Positions 5,702-57,565 of a stretch of DNA of 64,000 nucleotides are shown piece by piece (position 1 is the first letter of the stretch; each line of letters opens with the position of its first letter). The DNA comes from an uncultured Gammaproteobacteria bacterium (GTDB lineage Bacteria; Patescibacteriota; Microgenomatia; Levybacterales; UBA12049). The notes beneath the pieces are model-generated. The model had not been told where the DNA came from. It saw only the letters and a list, made by a program, of their open reading frames with translations, and ran no database searches. The position numbers and the translations under genes were made by a program. Location: assembly GCA_964515545.1 (NCBI GenBank), contig CAZERI010000002.1, positions 277,731 to 341,730 on the forward strand, written 5' to 3'.

Positions 5702-5779
5702 CAAATTTGTCCTAATACCCTTCATTGCTTTCGCTTTCTTTTTCGCCTATAATGGATGGTTGCTGTCTCCTTAGATTTT

Positions 5780-8674
5780 ATGGAAAAAATAGTCGTTAAA
5801 GGTGCTCGAGAGCACAACCTCAAAAATATTGATTTGGAGATTCCCAAAAATAAGCTGGTCGTTCTCACCGGTCTTTCTGGTAGTGGAAAATCCTCTCTGG
5901 CTTTTGACACGATATACGCTGAGGGCCAACGCCGGTATGTAGAGAGTCTTTCATCCTATGCCAGGCAGTTCTTGGGTACGATGAAAAAACCGGATGTTGA
6001 TCTTATCGAAGGCTTATCTCCCGCTATCTCTATAGATCAGAAGTCCACCTCGCATAATCCCCGCTCCACAGTAGGTACAGTAACCGAAATTTATGACTAT
6101 TTGAGGCTTCTTTTTGCACGTGTAGGACACCCTCATTGTCCAAATTGTGGCAGGGAGATTGCGCAGCAGTCCAAAGAGCAGATTACTGAATCTGTCATAA
6201 ACATGCAGGTAACACAAGCTGATCCCGGCAAAAAATTTGTCAGAGTGATGATCCTTGCACCGCTTGTTAAAGATAAAAGAGGGGAGTATACCGACCTTTT
6301 TACATCTCTTAAAAAGAGAGGCTACCGCAAAGTAAGAATTGACGGAAGAGTTATGTCTCTTGACAGCAAGATAATCTTAATTAAGACAAATAGACATAGT
6401 ATTGATTTAGTAGTTGATGCATTAGCAATTACCAAAGACACTGATCGTGTCCGGCTTTCTACAGATGTCGAGCAGGCTCTTCAATTCGGCAATGGCGAAA
6501 TGACGGTAGGAGTTATTAAGGATGCGTCTTTTGATATACCTGAGTATCCTGAACTCCTTGAAGATCACCTTTTCTCAGAAAAATTTGCCTGTCCCTTCTG
6601 TAACATCTCAATTCCTGAAGTAGAACCTCGTATCTTTTCTTTTAATACGCCTCATGGTGCCTGTCCTGAGTGCTCAGGTATTGGTAGAGTGTTAATTATC
6701 GACAAAGACCTCATCTTTAACAAAAATCTCACTATTAACGAGGGTGGAATTCTGCCTTTTTTCAATCTCGGTTCCAATGACACATGGTTTTCACGAACGT
6801 TTAAGACTTTTTGCGAGGAAAATGCTATCCCTATGAACACCAAGCTTGAAGCGTTAAATGAAGAGCAAAAAGATCTCCTTATTTTTGGAACAGGGGATAG
6901 GGAATACCGAGTTCGAGGAGAAAATAGATGGGGAAGCAGTACAGTTATTAGTGAGCCGTTTAGAGGAATTTCTTTTGAATTAAAGAGAAGATATGGCGAA
7001 TCAGATTCCTCATATGTAAAAAACCAAATAGAAAAATTCATGCGTTACGATGCTTGTCCGCTGTGTCATGGAGCGCGCCTAAAAGCTGAGGCACTTTCCG
7101 TAACGATTAATGATAAATCAATTGTTGGTGTCTCTGAAATGCCTATTGGTGAAGCCATGACATTTTTTGAAAATCTTCCCAGCGTCCTTTCTCCCCGAGA
7201 GCACGAAATCAGTAAACTCATCCTGAGAGAGATAACTACTCGTATAGGCTTTTTAGTTGATGTGGGGCTTGAATACCTTACTCTATCCCGTACAGCTGCC
7301 ACACTTGCTGGAGGTGAAGCACAGCGTATTAGACTTGCTTCACAAATAGGAAGCGGACTAACAGGCGTACTGTATGTTCTTGATGAGCCGTCAATTGGAC
7401 TTCACCAGAGAGATAATGAGAAGCTTATCGAGACTCTGGTAAAGCTTAAAAATCTCGGGAATACCGTCCTTGTCGTTGAGCATGACGAAGACACTATGGC
7501 TGCTAGTGATTACATCTTTGATTTTGGTCCGGGAGCTGGAGCCTTTGGTGGCGATATCGTGGCTCAGGGCACCTTTGATGAGCTTAAAAAAGATCCTCAC
7601 TCACTGACTGGCCAGTATTTATCAAAGAAGAAAGTTATTAAAGTAAAAAAGACCATAGATCCTACCCTTGTTAAGAAAGAGCCACAATTTCTCAAGCTTA
7701 TCGGAGCAGAAGAGCATAATTTAAAAAACGTCAACGCTACTTTCCCGCTTCACAAGCTCATTGTCGTAACAGGTGTCTCAGGGAGCGGTAAATCTACGCT
7801 TATTAATGATATTCTCTACCATGCATTAATGCAGAAAGAGAATCCATTCCATAGGCAAAAGCCCGGTAAGTTTAAGGATATAGAAGGATTTGAGAACATC
7901 AAAAATATTTTCCAGATTGATCAATCTCCTATCGGTCGCACTTCTCGCAGTAATGCTGCTACCTATACAGGAAGTTTTAATTACATTAGAGATTTATTTG
8001 CCCAGACAAAAGAGGCTAAAGTCAGAGGATACGGCCCTGGCAGATTTTCTTTTAATGTTAAAGGCGGACGCTGTGAAGCATGTGAGGGAGAAGGACAGAT
8101 AAAAATTGAGATGCAGTTCCTGCCTGATGTCTATATTACCTGTGAGGTATGCCAAGGCAAGCAGTACAATAACGAAGCTTTGGAGATTTTGTTCCAAGGG
8201 AAAAGTATAGCTGATGTCTTAGATATGAGCGTTAAAGAGGCAGTGGAATTTTTCTCATTTATTCCTGGACTTGCCCATAAGTTACAGACGCTTCAGGACG
8301 TTGGTTTATCCTATGTTACACTAGGACAGCCTGCACCTACCCTTTCAGGGGGAGAAGCTCAGCGGGTAAAATTAGCAACAGAACTCTCAAAAAGAGGCAA
8401 GGATGCTCTTTATCTTCTCGACGAACCCACCACAGGACTTCACTTTGCAGATTTGGAAAAGCTGCTTGTTGTTCTTCGTAGACTAGTAGATCAAGGCAAC
8501 TCAGTTATTGTTATTGAGCATAATCTAGATGTTATTAAAAATGCAGATTATATTATCGATTTGGGTCCAGAAGGCGGAGCTAAAGGAGGAGAAATTGTAG
8601 CTATGGGTACACCTGAAGAGATTGCCAAAAACCCTACATCCCACACAGGCCGTTTCCTTAAAAAAATACTTTAG
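5780..8674 (+). CDS. uvrA: Excinuclease ABC subunit A
   Basis: Two ABC ATPase modules ([14 protein letters not shown] and [13 protein letters not shown]), zinc-finger Cys clusters and the ABC signature LSGGEAQR appear twice. The second ATG ([14 protein letters not shown]) is chosen as start. Confidence 0.95.
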
Positions 8675-8693: not shown

Positions 8694-10508
8694 ATGCGAA
8701 GACTATTCTTAGTTTTTTTATTTTTCCTCAGTTTTTTTCTACTATTTTCTAATAAAACTTTTGCCTCTGACTATTTCACAAGAGACTACAACATTCTTTA
8801 CACAGTAAAAGAAGACGGCAAGACCAATGTTTCAATCACCATAACATTAACAAATAAGACCAGTGATTATTATGCGTCATCAGATACCCTGTCAGTCGGA
8901 TTTAGCGATATAGAAAATCTTACTGATAAAGATCCTGATGGTAATATTAAGCCTCTCGTTACTAAGACTGATCAAGGGAATAATATTCAGTCTACCTTTA
9001 ATAAAAAAGCAGTGGGTGTCGGAAAATCTATTAGCTATACGATTAGCTTTGATACGAAAGATATCGCTCACAAATCAGGTAAAGTGTGGGAAATTAATAT
9101 CCCTGGACTCTCAGATCCAGATAGTATTGATGGGTTTACTGCTGAGGTAAAAGTTCCGAATTCATTCGGCCAGCCAAATTATGTAAAACCTCAACCTAAA
9201 GACGGTAAGCTTATCTTCACTAAGACTGATTTACATACGTCAGCTATCTCTATTAGCTATGGGATAGAGCAGATTTATTCATTTAATCTTATCTATCACC
9301 TTCAAAATAAAAATCTTTACCCTATCAAAACAGAGATTGCTCTCCCACCTACGACTAACTATCAGTCAGTCGAGATAGATAGTATTTCACCTCGTCCCAA
9401 AGATGTAACGATTGATAAGGACGGTAATTGGCTTGCGCAATTTGAGCTTGCACCATCAGCAAGAGTTGATGTCGTGGTGCAAGGAAAAGCCAAAGTTACC
9501 AATCATCCCTCTCAAGTTAACTTAACTACACAGCAAATAGCAGATTACACAAAAGAAGAAAGATACTGGGAGGCTAACAATGCCCAGATTAAAAGCCTCG
9601 CCCGTAAATTAAGGACTCCGCAGGCAATTTATGACTATGTTGTCAAAAATCTCCATTATGACTTTAATCGTGTTACCGCAAATGAACCTAGGCTCGGTGC
9701 AAGCGGTGCCTTAAAAAACCCTTCTTCAGCGGTCTGCTTGGAATTCACCGACCTCTTCATAGCACTTTCAAGGGCTGCAGGTATTCCAGCTCGGGAAGTA
9801 AATGGTTTTGCCAACACCGAAAATTCAAAGCAGAGACCTCTGTCTCTCCTGCAAGACGTCCTGCATGCTTGGCCAGAGTATTATGACGATCAGCGCAAGG
9901 CATGGATTATGGTTGATCCAACGTGGGGAAATACAACTGGCGGTACAGATTATTTTTCTGTTTTTGACTTTGATCACCTCACCTTTGTCCGGAAAGGCTA
10001 CAATAGTGATTACCCTATCCCAGCAGGAGGCTATAAATACTCCGGGGATGAAAAGAAGCGAGACGTCAATGTATCTTTTGCAAGTGTTTTCTCCCAAGAT
10101 ATTCCTCAGATAAAAGTCCGCTCAGAATTTCCATCTAAAGCATTATCTGCCTTACCTATTGAAGGAACTATTGAGATTCAGAATGAAAGTAAAACACTTT
10201 TCCCAAAGACATCCGGAGTTCTAACATCAACTACACTATTTCCTACGCGTCAGGAAATAGAAATTGGTGAAGTACCCCCTTATGGTAAAAGAGATATCAC
10301 GATTGGTTTTCAGAAAACTCCTATTTTTGCTGACAAGACCTATGAATTTACATTCAATCTGCAAGGGACTATAATTCATAAAAGTGTTCGGGTAACTCCC
10401 ATCATCTTTTCCCGTTTCGCAATTATTGGAGGTGTAGTCATTGTTATTCTCACGTCAATCGTACTTATCGTTGCCATCAAAACCAGGCGTCTACCTTTAC
10501 TTAGATAA
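8694..10508 (+). CDS. Transglutaminase-like (TGc) domain protein with N-terminal signal peptide and C-terminal TM anchor
   Basis: Cys-His-Asp triad context AVCLEFTDLF...HAWPEYYDD...MVDPTW. N-terminus MRRLFLVFLFFLSFFLLFS and hydrophobic C-terminus IIGGVVIVILTSIVLIVAI. Confidence 0.65.
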   Translation: MRRLFLVFLFFLSFFLLFSNKTFASDYFTRDYNILYTVKEDGKTNVSITITLTNKTSDYYASSDTLSVGFSDIENLTDKDPDGNIKPLVTKTDQGNNIQSTFNKKAVGVGKSISYTISFDTKDIAHKSGKVWEINIPGLSDPDSIDGFTAEVKVPNSFGQPNYVKPQPKDGKLIFTKTDLHTSAISISYGIEQIYSFNLIYHLQNKNLYPIKTEIALPPTTNYQSVEIDSISPRPKDVTIDKDGNWLAQFELAPSARVDVVVQGKAKVTNHPSQVNLTTQQIADYTKEERYWEANNAQIKSLARKLRTPQAIYDYVVKNLHYDFNRVTANEPRLGASGALKNPSSAVCLEFTDLFIALSRAAGIPAREVNGFANTENSKQRPLSLLQDVLHAWPEYYDDQRKAWIMVDPTWGNTTGGTDYFSVFDFDHLTFVRKGYNSDYPIPAGGYKYSGDEKKRDVNVSFASVFSQDIPQIKVRSEFPSKALSALPIEGTIEIQNESKTLFPKTSGVLTSTTLFPTRQEIEIGEVPPYGKRDITIGFQKTPIFADKTYEFTFNLQGTIIHKSVRVTPIIFSRFAIIGGVVIVILTSIVLIVAIKTRRLPLLR

Positions 10509-11805
10509 AGCTAAAAACATTATTTATGTAGGGAAAGCCAAAGATCTTAAAGCTCGTGTTTCATCATACTTTACAGGACTTTCTCAGCTTGGACCCAAAA
10601 CTCAAGCTTTAGTTGAGCAGATAGATAAAATAAAAATTACTGTTGTCGAATCAGAGATTGAGTCCCTTCTTCTTGAGGCCTACTACATTAAGAAATATCG
10701 CCCTCGCTACAACATTCGTCTGACGGACGACAAATCCTATCCATTAATCAAAATTACTCTAAAAGATGAGTATCCCGCTGTTCTTTTTGCTCACAAGATG
10801 GATGATCCAAAGGCGACATATTTTGGCCCTTTCCCCAGTTCAGGATCGGTAAAGCTGGTCCTGCGGACCCTACGTCGTGCTTTTCCTTACCAGTCTGTCA
10901 TTAACCACCCGAAAAGAATATGTCTTTATCATCACCTTGGGCTTTGTCCCTGCCCTGTGGTAAATGACTCTGAAGAATTAAAAAAAGAATATAAAAAGAA
11001 TATTAAAAATATTATTAAAGTCCTGGAAGGTAAGTCTCAGGTTGTCATAAAGGAACTCAAAAAAGAAATGGAGGAGAAGAGTAAAGAAGAGAAATTCGAG
11101 GAGGCATCATTACTCAAGAAAAAAATACATGCACTTCAAATTATCACTGAGCCTACTATAAAGCCATTTGAATATGATATTAATCCTAATTTACGGACAG
11201 ACCTAAGAAAAAGAGAACTTGATGGATTACGGGAAGCACTCCAGACAAGCGGGCTTACCACCCCACCTCTCCTTCGCATTGAATGTTATGACATTTCCAA
11301 TATTCAAGGAACCAATGCTACAGGATCGCTTGTTGTCTTAACAGAAGGCGAAATAGATAAATCTCAGTATCGAAAGTTTAAAATCAGAAAAGATGGGAAA
11401 CCAAATGACTTTGCCATGATGGCTGAAATGCTTGAGAGACGCCTTAAACACCTAGAGTGGCCTAAACCTGACCTTATTATCATAGACGGAGGTAAAGGAC
11501 AGCTTTCCGCTGTTTTGGAAATCATGGAAAAAACGAATGTTCATTTTCCGCTTGTCGGCCTGGCAAAGAGGGAAGAGACCATTGTCATTCCAACAGCTCA
11601 AAGCTTTTTTGACGAAACCCACTCACAGAACTCCTCATCACTTTTAAGCAAACATATCTATGGTAGAAATGAAAAGAATTTTAGAGAAATCTCACTCAGT
11701 AAAAATTCAGCTTCACTTCATCTTATTCAGAAGATTCGTAACGAGGCCCATCGGTTCGCTATAACTTATCATCGGAAATTGCGGAGTAAAAGGGCAGTTG
11801 AGTAA
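10441..11805 (+). CDS. uvrC: Excinuclease ABC subunit C, short form lacking the C-terminal (HhH)2 domain
   Basis: GIY-YIG motif (PGVYLYLDKAKNIIYVGKAKDLKARV), Cys-rich segment, UvrB-interacting coiled region and endonuclease motifs RIECYDISN and NEAHRFAI are present. The protein stops about 20 aa after the latter. A TTG start overlaps the upstream gene by 68 nt. Confidence 0.8.
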   Translation: MLFSRQSYLSLPSKPGVYLYLDKAKNIIYVGKAKDLKARVSSYFTGLSQLGPKTQALVEQIDKIKITVVESEIESLLLEAYYIKKYRPRYNIRLTDDKSYPLIKITLKDEYPAVLFAHKMDDPKATYFGPFPSSGSVKLVLRTLRRAFPYQSVINHPKRICLYHHLGLCPCPVVNDSEELKKEYKKNIKNIIKVLEGKSQVVIKELKKEMEEKSKEEKFEEASLLKKKIHALQIITEPTIKPFEYDINPNLRTDLRKRELDGLREALQTSGLTTPPLLRIECYDISNIQGTNATGSLVVLTEGEIDKSQYRKFKIRKDGKPNDFAMMAEMLERRLKHLEWPKPDLIIIDGGKGQLSAVLEIMEKTNVHFPLVGLAKREETIVIPTAQSFFDETHSQNSSSLLSKHIYGRNEKNFREISLSKNSASLHLIQKIRNEAHRFAITYHRKLRSKRAVE

Positions 11806-26635: not shown

Positions 26636-27460
26636 ATGGTACAGGTTATAAAGGCTGATGGAAGTACTGAACCGTTCAGTGAAGAGAAAGTACTTCGATC
26701 CATAAAAAGAGCGGGCATTCCTCAGGATCTCCAAAATAAAGTTCTAGAATCAATTAAAACCAAACTTTATGATAATATTCCGACTCATGATATTTATGGA
26801 TTTATTACTGATGCCTTAGCTCATTCTCCTGAGCCTTTCAGTAAAGCACGCTATAGCCTCAAACAGGCAATCATGCTTCTTGGCCCGACAGGATATCCAT
26901 TTGAAGATTTTATAGCGAGGATCTATCAGGAAGAAGGCTATACTACCCAGACCAGGCAAAACTTAATGGGGAAGTGCGTCATGCATGAAATTGACGTGAT
27001 TGCCCAAAAAGATAAGAAAAAGACTCTGATCGAGGCTAAATTTCATAATAATGCTGGAACTCGATCAGAAGTCCAAGTTACCCTTTATATAAATTCCCGT
27101 TTTGAGGATCTCAAAAATAAATACGGCTTCAATGAAGCTTGGCTCGTAACAAATACAAAAGCTACTACTGATGCAATCGCCTATGCTGAATGTGTAGGTA
27201 TGCAGGTAATAAGCTGGAACTATCCTGAAAACAAAAGCTTAAGGGATATGATAGAGGAAAAAAATCTGCATCCTATCACCATGCTTTCTACTTTATCCCT
27301 GCAGCAAAAAGCGCATCTTATGGCAAATCACACAATTATTTGTAAAGATCTTCTAGAGAATGAGAAGCTATTGCATATTCTTAACCTCTCTCATGAAGAA
27401 CGACAACAGGTTCTCACAGAACTCAGATATATCGTAAATAACCACGACCACTCAGATTAA
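26636..27460 (+). CDS. ATP-cone domain fused to a Mrr-like (PD-(D/E)xK) restriction endonuclease domain
   Basis: N-terminus MVQVIKADGSTEPFSEEKVLRSIKRAGIP is ATP-cone. The core HEIDVIAQ...IEAKFH is the Mrr_cat PD-ExK motif. Confidence 0.6.
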   Translation: MVQVIKADGSTEPFSEEKVLRSIKRAGIPQDLQNKVLESIKTKLYDNIPTHDIYGFITDALAHSPEPFSKARYSLKQAIMLLGPTGYPFEDFIARIYQEEGYTTQTRQNLMGKCVMHEIDVIAQKDKKKTLIEAKFHNNAGTRSEVQVTLYINSRFEDLKNKYGFNEAWLVTNTKATTDAIAYAECVGMQVISWNYPENKSLRDMIEEKNLHPITMLSTLSLQQKAHLMANHTIICKDLLENEKLLHILNLSHEERQQVLTELRYIVNNHDHSD

Positions 27461-27478: not shown

Positions 27479-27991
27479 ATGATAGAGAGCGAAAGACAAA
27501 CCATAATTCCTGATGAGGTTCAGGAGAACCTTGATGGAATTGACCAATTTATCACCGACCTTTTCCCTCAAATTTTTGAGTCTCTCATGGGTATTACCTC
27601 TTTTCGAGATGAACTTCTGAGCAAGGTATATATTTTAAACCAAGAAACAAGCCATTTCATAGTGCGAGCTACTATATCCCACGAGAGTGATGAATACAGC
27701 ATATATTATGGAGCAATAGGCAAGAAAGATAAGGCTTTTGAGATGAGAAAAAATCCTATGGTGTATCGGGACAAGACTACCTTTGAGTCCTTGTTTTGTA
27801 TAACTGACTCTGAGGAAGGTTTTTTTGAAGACTTAGCTGATAACTCAAATAAAAGTATATCTACTAGTAGAAGGGTAGGAAATGTAGTTGTTACTGATTC
27901 AAATGATGTTAATGCGTGTATAGCAGGCGTCAATGCACTTGAACTGCTTGCATCATTTAAGGATTCTTCAGTAACATTTCTTGATGAATAA
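27479..27991 (+). CDS. Hypothetical acidic cytoplasmic protein
   Basis: 170-aa ORF 18 nt after the nuclease gene. No recognisable motif. Confidence 0.4.
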   Translation: MIESERQTIIPDEVQENLDGIDQFITDLFPQIFESLMGITSFRDELLSKVYILNQETSHFIVRATISHESDEYSIYYGAIGKKDKAFEMRKNPMVYRDKTTFESLFCITDSEEGFFEDLADNSNKSISTSRRVGNVVVTDSNDVNACIAGVNALELLASFKDSSVTFLDE

Positions 27992-28889: not shown

Positions 28890-30140
28890 TTAAAGACTGC
28901 TTCTGGCCAACTTTGTCCGCTCGAATTTATCTGCCATCCACCCATTGGGGGCTGTCGTTAATTTAGCTGAATTGAGGAGAAATCCATTCCTGATAGTGTG
29001 ATCCCCGAACTTATCATTAATACTATCCACAGCTTTAATTAGTTTCTCCTGCTTACGATCCTTTAAAAGGAGCGGTAAGGAAAGATGGGATGAATCTTCT
29101 AAGTACCCTGCCCAGACATTAATCCGGCGGACATATCCTACCGGTAGACCCCCATATTTCTGCTGCAGTATTTTCATCCCCAGCTGATAGAGATCAGATC
29201 CCGTATTAACAAAAGTAGTCTGAGTTATATGACCATGCACAGTAAAATCACCTGCCAAAAAAATACCAGCACTCCGGGATTTTTTATTCAACCGGCGCAA
29301 TTTCAGAGCTATTTCCTCATAGAGCTCATAAACATTTTGGAGGATTACCCGCTGGTTATGCTCATTGTGAGCCAGACAATACTGCCTCCCAACGGATTTT
29401 ACTGCAGGTTCCTCTGTATAGGAGAGAACGGGCCGTGGATCTATCCCTTGGCCGACATCATAGAGAAAATGTCCCTCCACATTCCCAAATTCACTGATAA
29501 GAACAGACAACGGTGCATTCCGCAGCTGCATAAGGGTTCTAATCCCGATCAGCTGGAGTCGTGCTTCAATCCGAGGACCAATTCCACAAATATCCTGGAG
29601 CTTAGCTATTTTATAGACACTCTCTACCTGGTGAGGATTAATAACGACGACCCCATTAGGCTTCTTAAGTCCTGATCCTAATTTAGCCAGCAATTTGTTA
29701 TATGAGACACCAATAGAGACGGTCAGATACTCTCCCAATTCCAGACGGAGACGCTTTTTTAAATGGGTAATAAGCCCTTCAACTCCACCATAGAGATGAG
29801 AAGAATACGTCGCATCCATAAAAAGTTCATCGAGTGAAAAAACTTCAATAAAAGGGGAGACATCTTTACAAATTGAAATAAATTTTTTACTTATCTCCCA
29901 ATACTTCCAGAAATCTGCAGGGACGAGCTTTATCTCAGGGCAGATACGGAGGGCATCATAGCTTCTTGTAGCAGTTCCTATCCCCAATTTCTTAGCCTCA
30001 CGGCTAGAAGCGATAATACAGCTCCTTCCATGGGTAGCTGTTACTCCCACAGGTTTGTTACGAAGGAAGGGATTACACTGCTGTTCTACACTTGCAAAAA
30101 AGGAGTCAAAATCTATATGTAAAATAATGCGCTGGTTCAT
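28890..30140 (-). CDS. dinB: Y-family DNA polymerase IV (DinB/UmuC-like), catalytically intact
   Basis: ILHIDFDSFFASVE (the first catalytic Asp/Glu cluster) and VFSLDELFMD (SLDE) are present, with palm, finger and little-finger regions. Start overlaps the upstream ORF stop as ATGA. Confidence 0.85.
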   Translation of the reverse strand: MNQRIILHIDFDSFFASVEQQCNPFLRNKPVGVTATHGRSCIIASSREAKKLGIGTATRSYDALRICPEIKLVPADFWKYWEISKKFISICKDVSPFIEVFSLDELFMDATYSSHLYGGVEGLITHLKKRLRLELGEYLTVSIGVSYNKLLAKLGSGLKKPNGVVVINPHQVESVYKIAKLQDICGIGPRIEARLQLIGIRTLMQLRNAPLSVLISEFGNVEGHFLYDVGQGIDPRPVLSYTEEPAVKSVGRQYCLAHNEHNQRVILQNVYELYEEIALKLRRLNKKSRSAGIFLAGDFTVHGHITQTTFVNTGSDLYQLGMKILQQKYGGLPVGYVRRINVWAGYLEDSSHLSLPLLLKDRKQEKLIKAVDSINDKFGDHTIRNGFLLNSAKLTTAPNGWMADKFERTKLARSSL

Positions 30141-30388
30141 GAACTTGCCTCAGGATCTTGTACATCCTCAATAGTCCAGGTTAAATTAGCAGTATTTAAA
30201 TTCAGACGAAAGAACAAAGAACCAGTAGCAACACTGAAGATATGACAAAGGGTATGACCTGACTCACGAGTGTGGTGGTAACCAATCTCCGTAACTGTAT
30301 AAACTCTGCCTCGCCATTTAATGCGCCAGGGATATGCTTTTCCATTCTCATTATCATAGACAGTAATAACACTTGCTTTCTCATTCAT
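30137..30388 (-). CDS. Hypothetical 83-aa protein between lexA and dinB (possible polymerase accessory factor)
   Basis: ATG start 11 nt after the lexA stop. Its stop overlaps the dinB ATG. No family recognised. Confidence 0.45.
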   Translation of the reverse strand: MNEKASVITVYDNENGKAYPWRIKWRGRVYTVTEIGYHHTRESGHTLCHIFSVATGSLFFRLNLNTANLTWTIEDVQDPEASS

Positions 30389-30398
30389 GATTGAAAGA

Positions 30399-30968
30399 CT
30401 ACCGATATTTTCTGATTACACTGGCGACTACACCGCCGATCAGCAGACTTTCTTGAGGCTTAATAATAGGATAGGAGCGATTCGCAGGCACTAGATATAT
30501 CTTCCCGTTTTGCTTCTTAAAATATTTTACTGTCCACTCACCATCTACATTGGCAGCGACTACATCTCCATCACGAACCATAGCATCTTTTTCCACAATA
30601 ACAATGTCGCCGTCATGAATCCCTGCATCGTTCATAGAGTCTCCTCGGACAGTGAGCGAAAAAATCTCTCCAGGCATATCTAAAAGATACTCATAGAAGT
30701 CGATGCTATCCCCCAAGGATCCCTCAACAGGAGCAGGGTAACCTGCCCTAATAAGTCCCAAATGGGGGATATGGAAAAGCTTTTTGGGAAGGAGTTTACC
30801 CTTTTCATCCTTCTCCAAAATCTCTGCTTCTATTAATTTATTAACGAGATAAACTGCAGCATTCTTAGAAGAGTAGCCAAACATCTCACAAATTTCCTGA
30901 TACGAAGGAAGACGACGCTGCTGTTTATAAAATTTTCGTAAATTTCTGATTGCTTTATCTAGATCCAT
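30399..30968 (-). CDS. lexA: LexA repressor (wHTH plus S24 self-cleaving peptidase)
   Basis: N-terminal wHTH (SYQEICEMFGYSSKNAAVYLVNKLIEAEIL), Ala-Gly cleavage site (IRAGYP), Ser nucleophile (RGDSMNDAG) and Lys (VKYFKK). Confidence 0.85.
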   Translation of the reverse strand: MDLDKAIRNLRKFYKQQRRLPSYQEICEMFGYSSKNAAVYLVNKLIEAEILEKDEKGKLLPKKLFHIPHLGLIRAGYPAPVEGSLGDSIDFYEYLLDMPGEIFSLTVRGDSMNDAGIHDGDIVIVEKDAMVRDGDVVAANVDGEWTVKYFKKQNGKIYLVPANRSYPIIKPQESLLIGGVVASVIRKYR

Positions 30969-30972
30969 ATAC

Positions 30973-31012
30973 TGTACGTTTGTACAACTACTATACTTGT
31001 ACGATCGTACAA
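30973..31012. promoter_or_regulatory. Two adjacent GTAC-N4-GTAC palindromes (TGTACGTTTGTACA at 30973-30986 and TTGTACGATCGTACAA at 30997-31012). Candidate LexA operators (SOS boxes).
   Basis: Box 2 is a perfect 16-bp palindrome. Both lie within 45 bp upstream of the lexA start. Their positions relative to the -35/-10 hexamers are listed in the next feature. Confidence 0.5.
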
Positions 31013-31018
31013 CGTCAA
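30990..31018 (-). promoter_or_regulatory. Sigma70-like promoter of the lexA operon (TTGACG-17-TATAGT on the minus strand)
   Basis: Minus-strand reading gives TTGACG, then ttgtacgatcgtacaag, then TATAGT. The -35 element is forward 31013-31018 and the -10 element is forward 30990-30995. Box 2 fills the spacer and box 1 lies between the -10 and the ATG. Confidence 0.45.
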
Positions 31019-31083
31019 GATGACAAACTAGATCAAAAATGATTAAAATTATAGGGAGGGAAAGAAGAAATGATCATACCACT

Positions 31084-31481: not shown

Positions 31482-32036
31482 TTAAGCTTGCGTCGGACCA
31501 AGGAGAGACCAATTATGTGACACTTCGGGAACGCTACACATACTGCGGTTAAAGCAGCATGGCCTTCGCATACCTTTATTCAATTTATCAAGCATTACGT
31601 CAAGATGCTTTTCACGAGTTTCCTGAGTCTTTACAGCTCGAACCCAGCGGATCCAATCCCAGTGAGCCAGAGGACTAATTTCATTCCAGATATTCTGAGC
31701 TTTTGCAGATGTAGATAGCGCTTTCTTCATATCCTCAGGTAGTTCAGGTTCGATCCATTCTTTCGTGGATTCCATCTCAACTTTAACTATATCACCAGCC
31801 TGAGCCTTGGCTTCTGAAAGTAACTTTTTACTAGGAGCAAACCAGTGACTTGGTTTTAAGCCTTTTCCATACTTTCCATCTGGTTCCAGAAGTGTTTGAA
31901 ACGTAACACCATTTAGCGTACCTTTGACCATCGTCATACCACGGGAGGGGAGCTTGGCACTCTCTTCAGGTGGTAAATGGAGGATAGTCCAGTCGTGGAT
32001 TTTAAATAGCTTTGTCTCAAATTTAATCGCAGCCAT
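31482..32036 (-). CDS. DUF1905 plus YdeI/OmpD-associated family protein
   Basis: N-terminal DUF1905-like beta region (KIHDWTILHLPPEESAKLPSRGMTMVKGTLNG) and C-terminal YdeI-like helical region. Confidence 0.45.
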   Translation of the reverse strand: MAAIKFETKLFKIHDWTILHLPPEESAKLPSRGMTMVKGTLNGVTFQTLLEPDGKYGKGLKPSHWFAPSKKLLSEAKAQAGDIVKVEMESTKEWIEPELPEDMKKALSTSAKAQNIWNEISPLAHWDWIRWVRAVKTQETREKHLDVMLDKLNKGMRRPCCFNRSMCSVPEVSHNWSLLGPTQA

Positions 32037-32230: not shown

Positions 32231-32533
32231 TCACTGTTGTTTACCATTCTTCGACAAACTCCGAGTTATACTTAATTTGATTAAGAGTTCTTTCTTGCCT
32301 TCAATGAGAGCTTTCTTCTTTGCAATGGACCATCCTTTTAATTGCTTTTCTCGTTTTTCTGCTTCTTGCCTAGTCTGGTAATGCTCAATATAAACAAGCT
32401 TAATATCAGAAAACTCTTTTGTAGCTATATTCTGTTTTAACTTATGAGAGGTAAATCTTTTTTCAACATTTGAGGAAAGCCCAATATAAAAAGTTTTCTG
32501 ATCGCAAAGAAGAATGTAAATAGCCCAGGGCAT
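32231..32533 (-). CDS. GIY-YIG nuclease-domain protein (UPF0213/YhbQ-like)
   Basis: WAIYILLCDQKTFYIGLSSNVEKRFTSH shows the GIY..YIG..R..H pattern. 100 aa. Confidence 0.6.
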   Translation of the reverse strand: MPWAIYILLCDQKTFYIGLSSNVEKRFTSHKLKQNIATKEFSDIKLVYIEHYQTRQEAEKREKQLKGWSIAKKKALIEGKKELLIKLSITRSLSKNGKQQ

Positions 32534-32571
32534 ACCTCTATATTAGGGGTAAAACCCTGAGCTTGTCGAAG

Positions 32572-32644
32572 GGTGGATGACGGGGATCGAACCCGCGACA
32601 TTCAGGTCCACAACCTGACGCTCTACCACTGAGCTACAACCACC
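32572..32644 (-). tRNA. tRNA-His (anticodon GTG) with encoded G-1
   Basis: Extra 5-prime G, anticodon stem-loop TCAGG-TTGTGGA-CCTGA, T-arm GCGGGTTCGATCCCCGT and discriminator C. Confidence 0.75.
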
Positions 32645-47595: not shown

Positions 47596-48720
47596 TTAGA
47601 GAGCAGGTGCAAATCCAGGAGACCTTCCGGATTTTAGTCTTAGCACGGCACCGAAGAAAAGCATTAAGAGATTTCCGATAATTGCAAAGAGGATCCATGG
47701 ATTACCAGTTGCAGGAAGAATTGGCCCTGTTGTGGCAGCAAGGACTCCAGGTCCGCCACTACTAGATCCACCGCCTCCACCATTACTTGGCGGGTTAGTT
47801 GGAGGAGTTACAGGCCCACAATCATGAGTGCAAGGTGGGGGAGGAGGTGGAGGAGTATGACATCCACAATCTACACTAACAGTATTAGTATTTGCGATAG
47901 TCTGAATATCAAGCGCAAGGTTAATATCTCCGCTCTCAATACTTACATTACCCTGATTATCATTTGCTGTATTGTTGCCAGTAATTAAATTCCAGATATT
48001 TAGATTAAGAATATCTGCTACGTTACTGACGTTAACAATGTTATTTTGATTTTGAGTCAGTGTAATAGTATTAATACTTCCCTTACCATTACCTGATATA
48101 TCAATACTAAATCCTCCAGTACTGCCGGTTGCCAAATGAACATTATTAGAATTAGTAACGGTCTTTATGGTTTCTTTGACAGTAATATTGCCTGACTTGA
48201 TACTAACATCACCTGAATTATTATTAGCTTTGTTATTACCTGTACTGACATTTCCGTTAGTAATAGTTACTATATGGGCAGTATTAGTACTATTTACTGT
48301 ATTTGTTGTTGTTGAGGTGTAGTTAACACTATTATTTGAATTCTGTCCATTATTAGAAATAGACGCCTGACTGTCTGTAGTACAATTACAGCCATTTAAA
48401 TCAGCCGAATTATGATTGGTATCAGTTGTAACATTGATTGTGTCAGAAGCATTGCCTGAGGATACTGATGCGTCTCCTGAATTATTACTTGCAGAGTTAT
48501 TCCCTGTATTCGAATTATTTGTCGTATTATTATTTACATTAGCATCATTAGACTGCTGTGATGTCGATTGGTTCTGAGACATTACAGTAACAGTATTTGC
48601 TGAACCTTGGCCATTGCCTGTAATACTCAGATCTTCAGCATGAGCTTTGACTGTAAAGGCTGATACAGGCAGAACAACAGCCGTTATGAGTGAACTAATA
48701 ATTACTCTTTTTTGTATCAT
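47596..48720 (-). CDS. Repeat surface protein, paralog 3, with C-terminal LPATG sortase sorting signal
   Basis: Signal peptide. Repeat modules ISGNG.GS.NT...NNTANDNQGNVSIESGD and CxC motifs (NGCNCTT, CGCHTPPPPPPPCTHDCG). C-terminal LPATG, then a hydrophobic stretch, then the RLKSGRS tail. Confidence 0.8.
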   Translation of the reverse strand: MIQKRVIISSLITAVVLPVSAFTVKAHAEDLSITGNGQGSANTVTVMSQNQSTSQQSNDANVNNNTTNNSNTGNNSASNNSGDASVSSGNASDTINVTTDTNHNSADLNGCNCTTDSQASISNNGQNSNNSVNYTSTTTNTVNSTNTAHIVTITNGNVSTGNNKANNNSGDVSIKSGNITVKETIKTVTNSNNVHLATGSTGGFSIDISGNGKGSINTITLTQNQNNIVNVSNVADILNLNIWNLITGNNTANDNQGNVSIESGDINLALDIQTIANTNTVSVDCGCHTPPPPPPPCTHDCGPVTPPTNPPSNGGGGGSSSGGPGVLAATTGPILPATGNPWILFAIIGNLLMLFFGAVLRLKSGRSPGFAPAL

Positions 48721-48771
48721 AATAGATTACCTATTTCTGAGCAGAAAATTATGGCGGGCAGGGGAACTAAT

Positions 48772-50946
48772 TTAGACAGTTATATTTCTCTTAAGAAATC
48801 TTCTTCCTAGTGCTGCTACTCCTAAAAGAGGAAGTAAAACAACCATCCAGGCAAGATTAATACTTATTTCATGGATATTATTAGTAAGAGCGTTTTTAAG
48901 CTGTGAATTTTTAGCAATATTACTTGCTCCGGCAACTAATACATTGCCACCCTGACCTTGATTAGAAGAGAGCTGCGTATTACCACCTTGGTATGAAGTA
49001 GTCTTACTGCTAGCGCCCATAACTGCAGTCTGAGTTGTTTGATTCGAGTTAGTATTTGCCGAATTATTATTTGAGCTATTAGCTGAGTTACTGCTTGGCT
49101 GCTGACTATTATTTCCTGACTGAGTTGTAGCTTGTTTAGTCTGGCCAGGTGCTATGAAGTCACCAAACCATGATCCGAAGACATTAACAACAGTTACTAC
49201 TAGCTTACCATTACCAGAGATATTGTTATTAACAAAATTGATAAGGTTGGCAATGATTGTTGCATCTCCGCTTTTGACAGTATTGTCACCGCCCAAGTTG
49301 TCATGAGATCTATTGTCTCCGGTATTTGCTGAAAGGTTAAGGTTGTTATTAATAGTAGCGTTATTAGATTGAGTTGTAGTATTAGTATTATTTGTTGTAC
49401 TTGATGCGTTATTAGTAGAACCCTCTCCATTACCATTGTTAGATGCAGTGATGGAGCCATCATCGTTAACTATAAATTCAGTTCCATCAGATCCAGCCAT
49501 ATTCCCATCAGCTCCTAAGAGCTTACCTACCCATTTACCAGCCTGATTAACGATAACAAGCCACATTGTCTGTCCATCAATATTAGAATTAGCTACATTA
49601 AGAACATTTGCAGTTACTTTTGTATCGCCTGAGGAGACGTTAGCTCCTCCGCCGTTATCACTTGCATAGTTATCCCCAGTTGAAGCATTAAGGTTAAGAT
49701 TATTATTAATGTTCGCGTTATTTGATTGATTAGTCGTGTCAGTATTATTAGTTGTGTTGGAAGCAGTATTCGTCGAATTTGCTCCGTTGTTGGCATTCAT
49801 AGTTGCACTAGGATTAGCTACTTCTTCCTCAGGTAAGATGATATCTCCATGTAATTCCCCATAGATATTGACTACGTTATACTGAACTTTGCCTCCCTCA
49901 ATATTATTATTTGCAAGAGTAAGTGCATTAGCTGAGACATTGGCATCACCTGACTCAACACTCGTATCCCCATCGATATTGTCATGTGCTCTGTTGTGGC
50001 CGGAATCAGCAACTAAGTTCATATCTGTTCCGATAGTTGCGTCATTATTCTGGAATGTATTATCAGTATTGTTAGTAGTACTATTTGCAGTATTTGTTGA
50101 ATCCTCACCATTGCCCTTATTGATGACTACATTCGGAGCAGTTGAGCCACAGCCTGAGATACAATGAGACGCAGAGTTAAGAATGAGGTCGCCATTCTGA
50201 ACATCATTAACATTGAACTCTGATACTGCAACGTTATCAAGATTTGAGTTAACTCCAGTTATCGCTGTGCCTGAGACATTCGCATCACCTGATTTAACAG
50301 TAACGTCTCCGCCTATATTGTCATTAGCCCGATTACTGCCAGTCACTGCAGACTGATTAAGAGTAGTATTTACATTAGCGCTGTTGTTCTGGTTAGTATT
50401 AGTAGTGTTATTTGTCGTTGATGAACCTGTATTTGTTGAGCCCTCACCATTTCCTGAGTTAACTACAGCACCTGATGGCGTATCTCCTATTGTCGCACCA
50501 CTGACAGTCTGTGGGGAGGTTGTTGTCGACTGCCCAGATGGTAAAGTAGGGGTTGGCTTAGGAGCACTTATTTTATTTTTCTTTGGCTGAGGAGTTGGAG
50601 TTGGTTGAGCCTCATCTGAAGTGTTCGTTGATGAGCTGCCAGAATTAGTTGATGGAGTATCTGTTGTAGCCTGCACCCCTGCATCAGAAGATGGGGTAGG
50701 GGTAGGAGTGACAGACACAATAGGTGCTGGCGTGATAGGCGCAATTGGCGTTATAGGTTGGTTATCCGGTGAGATAGGAGTTATAGGTGTTACTGGCGAT
50801 ATAGGACTTGACTGCTCCTGACTTTGGGTTGGAGTAGGAGTAGGTACGTCTTCTGCAAAGGCAAATGATACATTGCCGAAGAGCATTAACCCTACGACGT
50901 AAATTGCTACGATTTTTTGCATTTTTTCTTTAAATGTTTGTTTCAT
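48772..50946 (-). CDS. Repeat surface protein, paralog 4 (724 aa) with P/T-rich linker and at least 5 repeat modules
   Basis: Signal peptide. A 100-aa PT-rich spacer is followed by modules GNGEGSTN...TG.N.A.DN.GGD..V.SGDA with HCISGCGS between modules. C-terminal hydrophobic segment plus RRFLKR tail, without a canonical LPxTG. Confidence 0.75.
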   Translation of the reverse strand: MKQTFKEKMQKIVAIYVVGLMLFGNVSFAFAEDVPTPTPTQSQEQSSPISPVTPITPISPDNQPITPIAPITPAPIVSVTPTPTPSSDAGVQATTDTPSTNSGSSSTNTSDEAQPTPTPQPKKNKISAPKPTPTLPSGQSTTTSPQTVSGATIGDTPSGAVVNSGNGEGSTNTGSSTTNNTTNTNQNNSANVNTTLNQSAVTGSNRANDNIGGDVTVKSGDANVSGTAITGVNSNLDNVAVSEFNVNDVQNGDLILNSASHCISGCGSTAPNVVINKGNGEDSTNTANSTTNNTDNTFQNNDATIGTDMNLVADSGHNRAHDNIDGDTSVESGDANVSANALTLANNNIEGGKVQYNVVNIYGELHGDIILPEEEVANPSATMNANNGANSTNTASNTTNNTDTTNQSNNANINNNLNLNASTGDNYASDNGGGANVSSGDTKVTANVLNVANSNIDGQTMWLVIVNQAGKWVGKLLGADGNMAGSDGTEFIVNDDGSITASNNGNGEGSTNNASSTTNNTNTTTQSNNATINNNLNLSANTGDNRSHDNLGGDNTVKSGDATIIANLINFVNNNISGNGKLVVTVVNVFGSWFGDFIAPGQTKQATTQSGNNSQQPSSNSANSSNNNSANTNSNQTTQTAVMGASSKTTSYQGGNTQLSSNQGQGGNVLVAGASNIAKNSQLKNALTNNIHEISINLAWMVVLLPLLGVAALGRRFLKRNITV

Positions 50947-51001
50947 ATTGTTATTAGTTAATTGTTATTAGTAATTAGTTTTATTTTTATATCTTATGTG
51001 T

Positions 51002-51036
51002 ATGAGGTGTCTCGGAAGTGTTCGAGAACACCTCAT
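51002..51036 (-). terminator. Extended hairpin 13 nt downstream of the paralog 5 stop (probable terminator or processing site)
   Basis: atgaggtgt...acacctcat 9-bp stem with an inner ctcg...cgag stem. AT-rich tract follows on the minus strand. Confidence 0.35.
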
Positions 51037-51048
51037 ACAGCGATAAGA

Positions 51049-52290
51049 TTAAACAGTCATCCAAGCCATCCAAGAAGCCCAAAATTGATTCCAGTTGAAA
51101 TCAAAGTGAACTTGATTGTTACCAGGCATAGGAAGAGTGAGACCAGTTCCAACAGTATTAGTGTTACCACTAGTACCTACGTTAACGTCAGTAGATGCAT
51201 CACCAGAGGTGACGTGTGGATCAGAAAGATCTGAACCTCCATTGTCGTTAGCTTTGTTGTGACCAGTTTCTTTGTTCACATTTGTATTGTTGTTAGCATT
51301 CAAGACTGAAGTCTGGAATGTACCTGCATCGTTGCAAAGAGTTGCACCGATTGTGTTTTCAGAATCTCTCAAGTTATGAGCGATCTTAGCAGTAAGAGCC
51401 ATATTGCAGCATGCATCAAGTGACGCAGCGTTAAAGTTGGCCATTGTGTCAACGTTTACATCTGTGTTTGCTTTTCCAGATTTGACATAAACTTCGCCTC
51501 CGAGATTATCGTTAGCTCTGTTGAAGCCTGTATCTGAATTAACATTGGTGTTGTTATTAACATTTGCTACATTTGTTTGAGCAACTTCTGCACTGTTTCT
51601 AAGAGCAAGAGCGATAGAATTTACACTACCACGTCCATTCCCAAGAATTTGTGCACTTACACCATTGTTAGCACCGGCACTACCACCACCGACATTAGCG
51701 ACGTTAGAGTTAACTGCTGTTCCAAGTGTGACTGAAGTATCAACCATACCTGATTCAACACGAACATCCCCATCACCAAGATTGTCGTTAGCTTTGTTGT
51801 GGCCAGTGTTTGAATTAACGGTAGTGTTGTTATTAACATTAGCTACGTTCGTTTGAGTGACACCTGTTGAATTAGATTGTTGTAATCCAACTGTGTTTTC
51901 ACTGTTACGTCCGTTTCCACTGATGAGAACATCAGTACTACCATTGCAGCTTCCGCAGTTAGCAACGTTTGCAACGTTTGAGTTGGCATTGTTATTAACA
52001 GTGACATCTGTAGTTGCTGCGCCAGACTTAACATTTACATCTCCGCCAATGTTGTCATTAGCTTTGTTGTGACCAGTGTCAGAATTGACAGTGGTGTTGT
52101 TGTTAATATTAGCGACGTTGGTCTGAGTTACAGTAGTTGAATTATGAGTTGCAACTGCTGCTTCATTTACTGAATCTCTACCGTTTCCGGAGATTTCAAT
52201 TGTTGATGCTGCGAATGCTGGAGCTACTGAACCTACTAAGACTGTACCGGTTGCGATAGCTGTTGCGATTCTAAGTTTTAAATTTGTCAT
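51049..52290 (-). CDS. Repeat surface protein, paralog 5 (four ~90-aa modules)
   Basis: Signal peptide MTNLKLRIATAIATGTVLVGSVAPAFAAST is near-identical to that of paralog 1. The module ISGNGR.S.N...TQTNVANVNNNT.VNS.TG.NKANDN.GG.V.VKSG.A.TDV appears four times with CGSC and ACC between modules. GGGGGTGA RBS before the ATG at 52290. Confidence 0.75.
   Translation of the reverse strand: MTNLKLRIATAIATGTVLVGSVAPAFAASTIEISGNGRDSVNEAAVATHNSTTVTQTNVANINNNTTVNSDTGHNKANDNIGGDVNVKSGAATTDVTVNNNANSNVANVANCGSCNGSTDVLISGNGRNSENTVGLQQSNSTGVTQTNVANVNNNTTVNSNTGHNKANDNLGDGDVRVESGMVDTSVTLGTAVNSNVANVGGGSAGANNGVSAQILGNGRGSVNSIALALRNSAEVAQTNVANVNNNTNVNSDTGFNRANDNLGGEVYVKSGKANTDVNVDTMANFNAASLDACCNMALTAKIAHNLRDSENTIGATLCNDAGTFQTSVLNANNNTNVNKETGHNKANDNGGSDLSDPHVTSGDASTDVNVGTSGNTNTVGTGLTLPMPGNNQVHFDFNWNQFWASWMAWMTV
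51238..52135. repeat. Intragenic tandem DNA repeats (four copies of about 270 bp, roughly 80% identical) inside paralog 5. Similar repeats occur in 48.9-50.5 kb inside paralog 4.
   Basis: The repeated core ttgtcgttagctttgttgtg(g/a)ccagt...gttgttattaacattagc(t/g)acgtt is seen near 51250, 51500, 51780 and 52050. Confidence 0.6.
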
Positions 52291-52391
52291 AATATACTCA
52301 CCCCCTCTCTTGACGATGATTCCCAAACTTTTTTAAAGTAAGGGACACTTCACCCCGCTTACTTTGCTAGATGCCTGAGGCCCTAACAAAA

Positions 52392-56069: not shown

Positions 56070-56432
56070 CTAAGCAGAAGACGAAATAATATCAGCATCG
56101 ATAATCACTTCATCATGAATATATTTCTCAAGAATACTCAGATTTTTCTTATTGGCTTTATAAAAAGCATCTCCTATAAATCCTAGAAAAGGAATAAGGC
56201 CCAATATAAAGTCAAAAACCACATACATTATCATCAGACTAATTTCTTTTTCAGTAACGTTCACCTTTTTAGCAATCCAGATGATATAAAAAGACAGTAT
56301 TAAGCCGAAGAGACTTCCAATACCCGGAATAATATCCAAAAAAGGATCAACACCTATTGAAAAACGCCCGATTCTGAACTGTTCATCTAAGACGTGAGCG
56401 AGAAACTTAGCAAAAGAAAAATGATTCTTCAT
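56070..56432 (-). CDS. DUF4112-like small membrane protein
   Basis: RFSIGVDPFLDIIPGIGSLFGLILSFYIIWIA pattern. Confidence 0.4.
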   Translation of the reverse strand: MKNHFSFAKFLAHVLDEQFRIGRFSIGVDPFLDIIPGIGSLFGLILSFYIIWIAKKVNVTEKEISLMIMYVVFDFILGLIPFLGFIGDAFYKANKKNLSILEKYIHDEVIIDADIISSSA

Positions 56433-56650: not shown

Positions 56651-57565
56651 CTAGATTTTACCTGTGAGGTTAAATTTAAGAAGACGTACCTGCTTCATCA
56701 CCCAAATTCCTGAAAGCACTGCACTGCTAAGGAGAGCTGGATACTTGTCTTTGTAATGCTTAGTATAAAATATCTTCATAGCATCTGCTCCTGCAATTAA
56801 TACTTTTCTCTTAGTTGCTAAATCTACTTTTACTTTTACCCCCGGCTTTTGAGACTTACCTTTAGCAGCTCCTTTATAATGGGATATTTTAATACGAGGA
56901 ACATACATGATCTTTTTCCCAAGTTCCCAAATCTTCCAGCACAAATCGATATCCTCACCATTTAAGAAATAGTCCTCATCGTACCACTCAATCTTGTCCA
57001 TAATCTTTTTCGGTACTAGACAATACGCTCCTTCTATTACATCTGCCTCCGATTCCTGATCAGGATCGAGGTATCCTACCCAATAACGTGCAAAAAGTTT
57101 CGATCGAGGAAATAGTCGATCTAATTTCGTCATATGAGTAAAGGCTACCCATGGAGTAGGGAAGGATCTCCTAGCATCTCGGTCTAAAGTGCCATCAGTC
57201 ATAACTATTTTGCACGTCATTGCCCCAACATCGGGATGATCTTCCATATACTTAATAGACTCAGGCAGCGTATCTTCCTCTACCATCGTATCTGCGTTCA
57301 GCATAAGAATGTAGTCTCCAGTGCACATATCGCGGACGATATTATTACCGGCAGAAAATCCAATATTCCCATTCCGACGATACTTCATCTGAGGGAACTC
57401 TCTTCTCATCATCTCATCAGTATCATCAGCTCCATTATCTGAGACAATCACTTCAAAAGAATACCCTGCTTTTTTCATGCCTGGTTGAGCTTTTTCTAAC
57501 GAGAGGAGGCAGTCACGGAGCAGATCACGGATATTAAACGTACTTACAATTATTGAGAGTGTCAT
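56651..57565 (-). CDS. Glycosyltransferase family 2
   Basis: LSIIVSTFN, DNGADDTDE and the DxD region (NADTMVEED). Confidence 0.7.
   Translation of the reverse strand: MTLSIIVSTFNIRDLLRDCLLSLEKAQPGMKKAGYSFEVIVSDNGADDTDEMMRREFPQMKYRRNGNIGFSAGNNIVRDMCTGDYILMLNADTMVEEDTLPESIKYMEDHPDVGAMTCKIVMTDGTLDRDARRSFPTPWVAFTHMTKLDRLFPRSKLFARYWVGYLDPDQESEADVIEGAYCLVPKKIMDKIEWYDEDYFLNGEDIDLCWKIWELGKKIMYVPRIKISHYKGAAKGKSQKPGVKVKVDLATKRKVLIAGADAMKIFYTKHYKDKYPALLSSAVLSGIWVMKQVRLLKFNLTGKI

Follow-up and report, generated by a model that had tools for sequence, protein, structure and literature searches.

The lexA operon and its promoter

The window (the whole 64-kb stretch of DNA that was analyzed) comes from an uncultured bacterium that homologues and related loci place in Candidatus Levyibacteriota (Patescibacteria, Microgenomates group); the minus strand of the window encodes an operon of three genes, that is, lexA, orf83, and the gene for a Y-family polymerase (Table 1). 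The second gene starts 10 nt past the lexA stop codon and overlaps the start of the polymerase gene by 4 nt. The polymerase matches the NCBIfam Pol IV models with E = 2e-66, under the cut-offs of those models. For the orf83 product, neither Pfam nor NCBIfam gave a match at default thresholds and no fold match was obtained in the PDB; a distant one to DUF6504 is the sole link that was found. The order lexA-orf83-polY is kept in the related loci L001–L011 and L015, and in the metagenome loci described below, a Y-family polymerase gene commonly follows lexA.

Table 1. Features of the lexA operon and its promoter, in window coordinates.
Feature	Position	Strand	Description
Upstream block	31019-31034	minus	GATCTAGTTTGTCATC; adjoins the -35 hexamer on its upstream side; conserved; candidate UP-like element or second site
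-35 hexamer	31013-31018	minus	TTGACG; consensus promoter scan
Spacer between -35 and -10	31012-30996	minus	17 bp, TTGTACGATCGTACAAG
Box 1 (predicted distal operator)	30997-31012		TTGTACGATCGTACAA; perfect 16-bp palindrome; fills the -35/-10 spacer
-10 hexamer	30990-30995	minus	TATAGT; consensus promoter scan
Segment between -10 hexamer and lexA ATG		minus	21 nt, AGTTGTACAAACGTACAGTAT; contains box 2
Box 2 (predicted proximal operator)	30972-30987		CTGTACGTTTGTACAA (plus strand); 14-bp core TGTACGTTTGTACA at 30973-30986
lexA start codon	30968-30966	minus	ATG
lexA	30399-30968	minus	189 aa; three-helix winged HTH and S24 self-cleaving domain
orf83	30137-30388	minus	83 aa; small all-beta conserved protein, distant DUF6504 relative; second operon gene
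Y-family (DinB-like) translesion DNA polymerase	28890-30140	minus	Third operon gene; Pfam IMS, IMS_HHH_1, IMS_C

In a consensus scan, the lexA promoter ranks first among the promoter-like sites of the region (10 of the 12 hexamer positions match, with a 17-bp spacer). Both boxes are 4-N4-4 dyads (palindromes of 16 and 14 bp) that overlap this promoter. Taken as a 16-mer, box 2 lies 2 nt past the -10 hexamer and 3 nt short of the ATG; measured by its 14-bp core, these distances are 3 and 4 nt, respectively. The first-pass annotation of this DNA had placed the two palindromes at 30973-30986 and 30997-31012, and these coordinates are exact to the base; the minus-strand promoter that it had read (TTGACG, a 17-bp spacer, and TATAGT, with one box in the spacer and the other between the -10 hexamer and the ATG) is likewise confirmed.

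The sequence GTAC-N4-GTAC occurs twice in the window, where 0.17 occurrences are expected, and both occurrences are at the lexA promoter; this promoter is also the only spot in the window with at least three GTAC tetramers inside 40 bp (it has four, with 145 window-wide). Of 100 shuffled windows, 3 contain at least two GTAC-N4-GTAC. The within-window statistics are modest when taken alone; the decisive evidence is the conservation of the boxes in orthologous promoters.

The lexA product is a full-length LexA homologue

The protein encoded by lexA is a full-length LexA homologue. Its S24 domain (LexA/UmuD/CI-type) matches Pfam PF00717 with E = 3.7e-27 (94.8 bits vs a cut-off of 23.3), and residues 11-186 align with residues 16-197 of E. 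coli LexA (phmmer). The Ala-Gly cleavage site (A84-G85) and the Ser/Lys dyad (S119 and K156) of the E. coli protein align with A75-G76, S111, and K148; these four residues are unchanged across 25 homologues. The AF2 model contains three helices (residues 3-17, 23-30, and 35-47) plus two strands, and its best PDB matches are the full-length LexA structures 3JSO and 3K2Z (190-195 columns). The first is the E. coli LexA-DNA complex (fold match with E = 1.6e-14 over 195 columns); the second is T. maritima LexA. The score against the equivalog model TIGR00498 is under the cut-off (106.4 vs 110.95 bits, with coverage of residues 8-188 of 189), a narrow miss that is typical of divergent CPR proteins; the Pfam DNA-binding model LexA_DNA_bind (PF01726) gives no match on the N-terminal fragment, even at E <= 10. 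From the list of DNA-contact residues of E. coli LexA (PMC3091678), three of five are kept: by alignment, S34, N36, and A37 correspond to S39, N41, and A42, whereas E44 and E45 are replaced by V39 and Y40.

The boxes are conserved in the promoters of relatives

Upstream sequence was available for 10 Levyibacteriota relatives (L001–L009 and L011), with LexA proteins that are 59-98% identical to that of the window (98% in the closest, L001). The order of the -35 hexamer, box 1, -10 hexamer, box 2, and ATG is identical in all 10. In the alignment of these promoters (L001–L011), TTGAC directly 5' of box 1 is conserved, the hexamer between the boxes is TATAGT, TATATT, TATACT, or TATAAC, box 2 starts 3-6 nt after the -10 hexamer, and the ATG is located ~4 nt beyond box 2; the sole departures are insertions in the leader (L003 and L006). 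Outside of the promoter block (the boxes, the hexamers, and a 16-bp element above the -35 hexamer) the sequences diverge, and farther upstream they are unrelated. The centers of the two boxes are separated by 25 to 29 bp; this variation argues that their placement is set by the promoter elements and not by strict helical phasing.

The spelling of the half-sites is less rigid than their position. Four relatives (L002–L005) have GAAC-N4-GTAC and GTAC-N4-GTTC sites, with the same recognition helix as the window LexA (SSKNAAVYLVNKL); the most divergent relative, L011 (59% LexA identity), has TTGAACGATTGTTCAA twice. The consensus of the 16 sites collected from the relatives only is YTGWAC-RWWY-GTWCAR, in which T2, G3, A5, and C6 are invariant (pattern TG.AC....GT.CA). 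A PSSM derived from these 16 sites assigns 25.3 bits to box 1 and 23.0 bits to box 2; the runner-up in the window, an intragenic site, scores 9.8 bits. The GTAC operator consensus proposed in the first-pass annotation is too narrow for the lineage; because relatives with an identical helix use GAAC or GTTC half-sites, the lineage consensus is TGWAC-N4-GTWCA and not strictly GTAC, and the genome-wide search for a strict GTAC regulon that the annotation had proposed would be too strict.

The 16-bp element above the -35 hexamer (the upstream block of Table 1) occurs once in the window; among the 94 loci described next, it is found only in the lexA promoters of L001, L002, L004, L005, L008, and L009.

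The sites track lexA and co-vary with its recognition helix

We compared 94 Patescibacteria lexA loci (859 kb), including 80 from metagenomes. Within 400 bp upstream of lexA (34.6 kb in total), 100 sites match the core G[AT]AC-N4-GT[AT]C, compared with 33 in the other 825 kb, so that their density is ~70-fold higher upstream of lexA than elsewhere; such a site is found in this upstream region in 76 of the 94 loci. Perfect 16-bp palindromes are distributed even more unevenly (67 near lexA vs 1 elsewhere). In the 80 metagenome loci, the palindrome upstream of lexA is mostly GAAC-N4-GTTC.

The loci contain at least four classes of helix 3, each of which has its own spelling of flanks and half-sites. 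LexA proteins with the recognition helix RSKSVVNFW are encoded downstream of TAGAAC..GTTCTA, those with SKNAV[FY]KL downstream of GTGAAC..GTTCAC, and those with SKSSVAALVARL downstream of CGAAC..GTTCG; the helix ASKSWVKA is accompanied by two types of site, AAGAAC..GTTCTT and CAGCAC..GTTCTG, and the helix SSKNAAVYLV by YTGWAC..GTWCAR. The dinucleotides that flank the half-sites co-vary with the helix; of the computational results, this co-variation argues most strongly for LexA itself as the protein that reads the sites. As a separate observation, GTAC half-sites arise independently in L015 and L033.

These results bear directly on the possibility that the boxes are real operators of another transcription factor and that LexA is not autoregulating. 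LexA binding to the boxes is so far a prediction from sequence, and the conserved block next to the -35 hexamer suggests that a further factor may be at work on the promoter as well. Against a different factor, the sites track lexA in most of the loci and their flanks vary in step with the LexA recognition helix; in addition, a 4-N4-4 dyad or 16-bp palindrome is the geometry of known LexA boxes (PMC3091678, PMC2248561), and in the loci compared no regulator gene other than lexA is conserved beside the boxes. We consider this explanation unlikely.

A second possibility is that the GTAC clusters are targets of restriction-modification or methylation, with either epigenetic control of the promoter or no function. 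As a 4-bp palindrome, GTAC resembles the sites that restriction-modification systems read, and the window contains somewhat fewer copies than expected (145 observed vs 191-228 expected). In the relatives, however, GTAC is exchanged for GAAC or GTTC in one or both half-sites while the dyad, its flanks, and its position are kept; the flanking T/A and TG/CA, which lie beyond the tetramer, are invariant. Because the relatives lose GTAC tetramers yet retain the LexA-type dyad, we reject this explanation as very improbable.

Equally small is the chance that the palindromes work as a hairpin in the 5'-leader or as a cruciform instead of as sites for a protein. Both boxes are able to fold into hairpins with 5-bp stems (-3.2 and -4.2 kcal/mol), and box 2 would fall within the transcript; however, stems of just 5 bp are weak, and the 47 nt that comprise the leader and start region fold no better than shuffled sequences (z = -1.3). 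Box 1, which precedes the inferred transcription start, would not be transcribed; what is conserved in both boxes is a sequence (TG.AC....GT.CA) and not merely the potential to pair. Rfam has no match at the boxes (it finds only tRNAs). Finally, the explanation that the palindromes are functionless chance occurrences in an AT-rich promoter, for which the frequency of paired sites in shuffled windows could be cited, is effectively refuted by the boxes of the relatives, all 10 of which (LexA identity as low as 59%) keep the sites in place and in sequence between flanks that have diverged, as well as by the density of core sites upstream of lexA.

The interpretation that we favor, with a probability of about 0.85, is that both palindromes are operators by which LexA represses the operon for itself, the DUF6504-like protein, and the Y-family polymerase. 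The first-pass annotation had proposed twin LexA operators in the lexA promoter; as candidates they are now supported by the homology of the lexA product, the conservation in all 10 relatives, the association with lexA, and the co-variation with the recognition helix.

Search for additional targets

With the PSSM from the relatives, no other site of at least 12 bits was found in the 64-kb window. In 183 kb of the lexA flanks of the relatives, no additional site was found away from the lexA promoter, and the degenerate box 2 of L001 itself was the one further hit of at least 12 bits. Two DNA-damage genes in the window, uvrA (5756-8674) and uvrC (10441-11805), have no operator upstream (best PSSM scores of -7.8 and -3.7 bits, respectively). 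Within the window and these flanks, the lexA-orf83-polY operon is the only predicted target that was found; the absence of a second member leaves the 'SOS regulon' aspect of the original proposal unsupported beyond this operon.

Several weaker PSSM sites in the window were considered as operators and rejected. The sites at 38805 (9.8 bits), 23190, and 39239 are intragenic; the site at 57534 (8.0 bits) falls within the ORF at 56651-57565, 16-31 nt from its annotated 5' end.

Relationship to known LexA boxes

The Cheo box of Gram-positive bacteria (Firmicutes/Actinobacteria) is GAAC-N4-GTTC, with the consensus CGAACRNRYGTTYC (PMC2248561). The window boxes share with it the 4-nt half-sites, the N4 spacer, the location in an SOS promoter, and the occurrence in more than one copy, which is frequent for Cheo boxes; also, half-sites of the close relatives are in part GAAC or GTTC, and most Patescibacteria lexA loci have GAAC-N4-GTTC. 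The differences are T instead of A at position 2 of the half-site (two mismatches to the 8-nt core, compared with zero to two for the boxes of the relatives) and flanks that are T..A instead of C..G (four to five mismatches to the 14-mer). The 4-N4-4 geometry and the half-sites of the relatives assign the window boxes to the Gram-positive Cheo-box family.

The LexA box of cyanobacteria has been described as RGTACNNNDGTWCB or AGTACWNWTGTACT (PMC3091678). The window boxes match its core, GTAC-N4-GT(A/T)C, exactly, and in both systems A or T is tolerated at the second position of the half-site. However, the flanks are reversed (T-GTAC..GTAC-A in the window vs A/R-GTAC..GTAC-T in cyanobacteria), so the window boxes have two to four mismatches to the cyanobacterial consensuses (two to three of the 11 specified positions of RGTACNNNDGTWCB). 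In the full-text literature, searched with Sanchez-Osuna et al. (2017) outside its scope, the cyanobacterial RGTACNNNDGTWCB is the only counterpart of GTAC-N4-GTAC that was found. Because the two lineages are not related, convergence inside a single motif family is the likelier source of the resemblance.

The E. coli lexA promoter has two adjacent SOS boxes, and autoregulation of lexA via two operators on its own promoter is the arrangement predicted for the window. Compared with the gammaproteobacterial SOS box, CTGT-N8-ACAG (PMC2248561, PMC3091678), box 2 is CTGT-N8-ACAA (one mismatch) and box 1 is TTGT-N8-ACAA (two mismatches); five orthologous boxes in L006–L009 (every box 1 of these four loci, plus box 2 of L006) match it without a mismatch. 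The motifs thus agree at their outer positions and differ at the center, which in Levyibacteriota is C-RWWY-G, with C6 and G11 invariant and without a (TA)n run. The first-pass annotation had described the motif as of the GTAC type rather than the E. coli type; the boxes are indeed a variant of the Gram-positive and cyanobacterial motifs, but the opposition to the E. coli box is not clear-cut, given CTGT-N8-ACAA in box 2 and CTGT-N8-ACAG in orthologous boxes.

The LexA box of Myxococcus xanthus, CTRHAMRYBYGTTCAGS (PMC2248561), is also of a hybrid structure, which combines a CTGTA-like left half with a GTTCAG right half. Box 2 of L004 and L005 ([T/C]TGTACGTTTGTTCAG) is one mismatch from this consensus, and the window boxes are two to four mismatches from it; the Myxococcus consensus is asymmetric, whereas the Levyibacteriota palindromes are symmetric.

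By sequence, then, the window motif is a composite within the known continuum of LexA boxes. A more ambitious proposal is that the LexA of Levyibacteriota reads a hybrid operator, YTGWAC-N4-GTWCAR, that would fit both G(A/T)AC-N4-GT(A/T)C and CTGT-N8-ACAG, with a recognition helix in which the S-x-N-A-A contacts of the E. coli type are retained; it would then survive as a living intermediate on the evolutionary path between LexA motifs that has long been discussed. The regulon may, in addition, be a single self-repressed operon that carries the translesion polymerase and the DUF6504-like protein as its partner. We regard this proposal as possible, though less likely than not, and offer it tentatively.

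The first-pass annotation held the SOS regulon of this organism to be probably uncharacterised, but for the superphylum this is not wholly the case: Sanchez-Osuna, Barbe and Erill (2017, Environ Microbiol 19:3465) examined SOS regulation across the Patescibacteria by comparative genomics, a scope that takes in the present locus, in a study that reportedly describes a small LexA regulon, mainly for translesion synthesis, with Gram-positive-like motifs. A small, translesion-centered regulon with motifs of that kind agrees with the lexA loci seen here. PMC8565304 and PMC7739468, which cite that study, attribute to it a novel motif and one of direct repeats; the motifs so credited are unlike the Levyibacteriota boxes.

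A model for regulation of the operon

In the model that we propose, a LexA dimer on box 1 would fill the whole 17-bp spacer, thereby excluding RNA polymerase. A second dimer on box 2, with which the first may cooperate, would cover the inferred transcription start (~7 nt past the -10 hexamer) and nearly the whole leader; its presence would block either open-complex formation or promoter escape. Upon DNA damage, RecA filaments would stimulate the self-cleavage of LexA at A75-G76 via S111 and K148, both boxes would be vacated, and the operon, including the translesion polymerase, would be transcribed; fresh LexA would then restore repression. This prediction is consistent with the fact that translesion polymerases are the class of genes most consistently controlled by LexA (PMC8565304).

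Because the lexA leader is only ~15 nt long and is without a Shine-Dalgarno sequence, we infer both the transcription start, which box 2 would span, and the mode of translation. In many genes of the window, the distance from the end of a -10-like hexamer to the start codon is exactly 6-8 nt, and Shine-Dalgarno sequences precede few of the genes; together, these are the signature of leaderless mRNAs. For lexA, the 21 nt from the end of the -10 hexamer to the ATG equal the leaderless distance plus approximately the length of box 2, that is, the short leader is essentially the operator.

Significance

The self-repression of lexA by paired boxes embedded in its promoter is textbook biology, and the window boxes are an ordinary element with a lineage-specific spelling; they leave the current understanding of the SOS response unchanged. 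Their interest is modest and is found in the hybrid motif, the co-variation series, and the association of a DUF6504-like gene with a polymerase. The operon couples the uncharacterised orf83 to a Y-family polymerase that is predicted to be controlled by LexA, suggesting that the DUF6504-like protein acts as an accessory in translesion synthesis. The operator model YTGWACRWWYGTWCAR can be used for rebuilding the LexA regulon in Levyibacteriota, for which it is better than a strict GTAC pattern; and across the Patescibacteria, the series in which the reading head and the operator co-vary could help to decode the specificity of LexA and the drift of its motifs.

Promoter-proximal and variant features of the lexA loci

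A 16-bp block, GATCTAGTTTGTCATC, abuts the -35 hexamer of lexA on its upstream side and is identical at the lexA promoters of six Levyibacteriota relatives (L001, L002, L004, L005, L008, and L009); variant forms occur in three others (L003, L006, and L007). Its conservation is limited to the lexA promoters of this close clade, and neither the rest of the window nor the set of 94 lexA loci contains a further occurrence. The block could be an UP-like element or the site of a second regulator.

Features of the window considered here.
Feature	Position	Strand	Description
uvrA	5756-8674	+	
uvrC	10441-11805	+	
ATP-cone/Mrr protein	26636-27460	+	ATP-cone domain and Mrr-type restriction endonuclease domain in one protein
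orf83	30137-30388	-	ORF of 83 aa, between lexA and the Y-family polymerase gene
16-bp block	31019-31034	-	adjoins lexA -35 hexamer
GIY-YIG protein	32231-32533	-	stand-alone nuclease-domain protein, 100 aa; gene just downstream of tRNA-His
tRNA-His	32571-32643	-	
Three consecutive large ORFs	47596-52326	-	374, 724, and 425 aa

The lexA locus of L003 (a relative with 85% identity) carries a 131-nt GC-rich insertion (9870-10000) between box 2, a candidate LexA operator, and the lexA ATG. The insertion folds into several hairpins (MFE -41.8 kcal/mol) and has no second copy among the lexA loci compared; a small mobile element is one possible identity, a structured leader another.

In ten metagenome loci with a box of the GTGAAC..GTTCAC class (L019, L022, L028, L043, L047, L048, L051, L054, L068, and L069), the box does not adjoin lexA but sits 230-370 bp upstream; this arrangement suggests that a small gene precedes lexA in the same operon. 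In six loci (L061, L063, L065, L067, L073, and L077), a second, shorter S24 (UmuD-like) ORF lies directly 3' of lexA; a Y-family polymerase comes next in two of these loci, L063 and L067, so that the genes there run lexA-umuD-like-polY.

Excision repair and other genes in the window

Scored with a LexA-box matrix built from the relatives' sites only, the regions upstream of uvrA and uvrC contain no LexA-type box (best scores, -7.8 and -3.7 bits, respectively); judged from these sequences, LexA does not seem to control nucleotide excision repair in the source genome.

A leaderless-mRNA signature recurs across the window, for example, at 27479, 31482-32036 (-), 39365, and 56070-56432 (-). The distance from the end of the -10-like hexamer to the start codon is exactly 6 nt in seven cases (six different genes) and 8 nt in three genes; the hexamers often have the extended form TGNTAYAAT, and a Shine-Dalgarno-like motif is present at only 13 of the 56 ORFs.

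The combination of ATP-cone and Mrr-type endonuclease domains is an unusual fusion. At E ≤ 1e-5, Pfam matches none of the three consecutive large ORFs.

The middle gene of the lexA operon

The conserved orf83 protein is modeled as an all-beta fold of six strands (AF2, pLDDT 91.6), for which a PDB fold search returned no match. A profile search places it in a family of 506 representative clusters, mostly of ~86 aa. The link of orf83 to Pfam DUF6504 is only a distant one: 8 of 18 members give weak matches, and a single distant representative exceeds the DUF6504 cut-off. The full-text literature searched yielded no mention of DUF6504. The orf83 protein may serve the LexA-controlled polymerase as an accessory factor.
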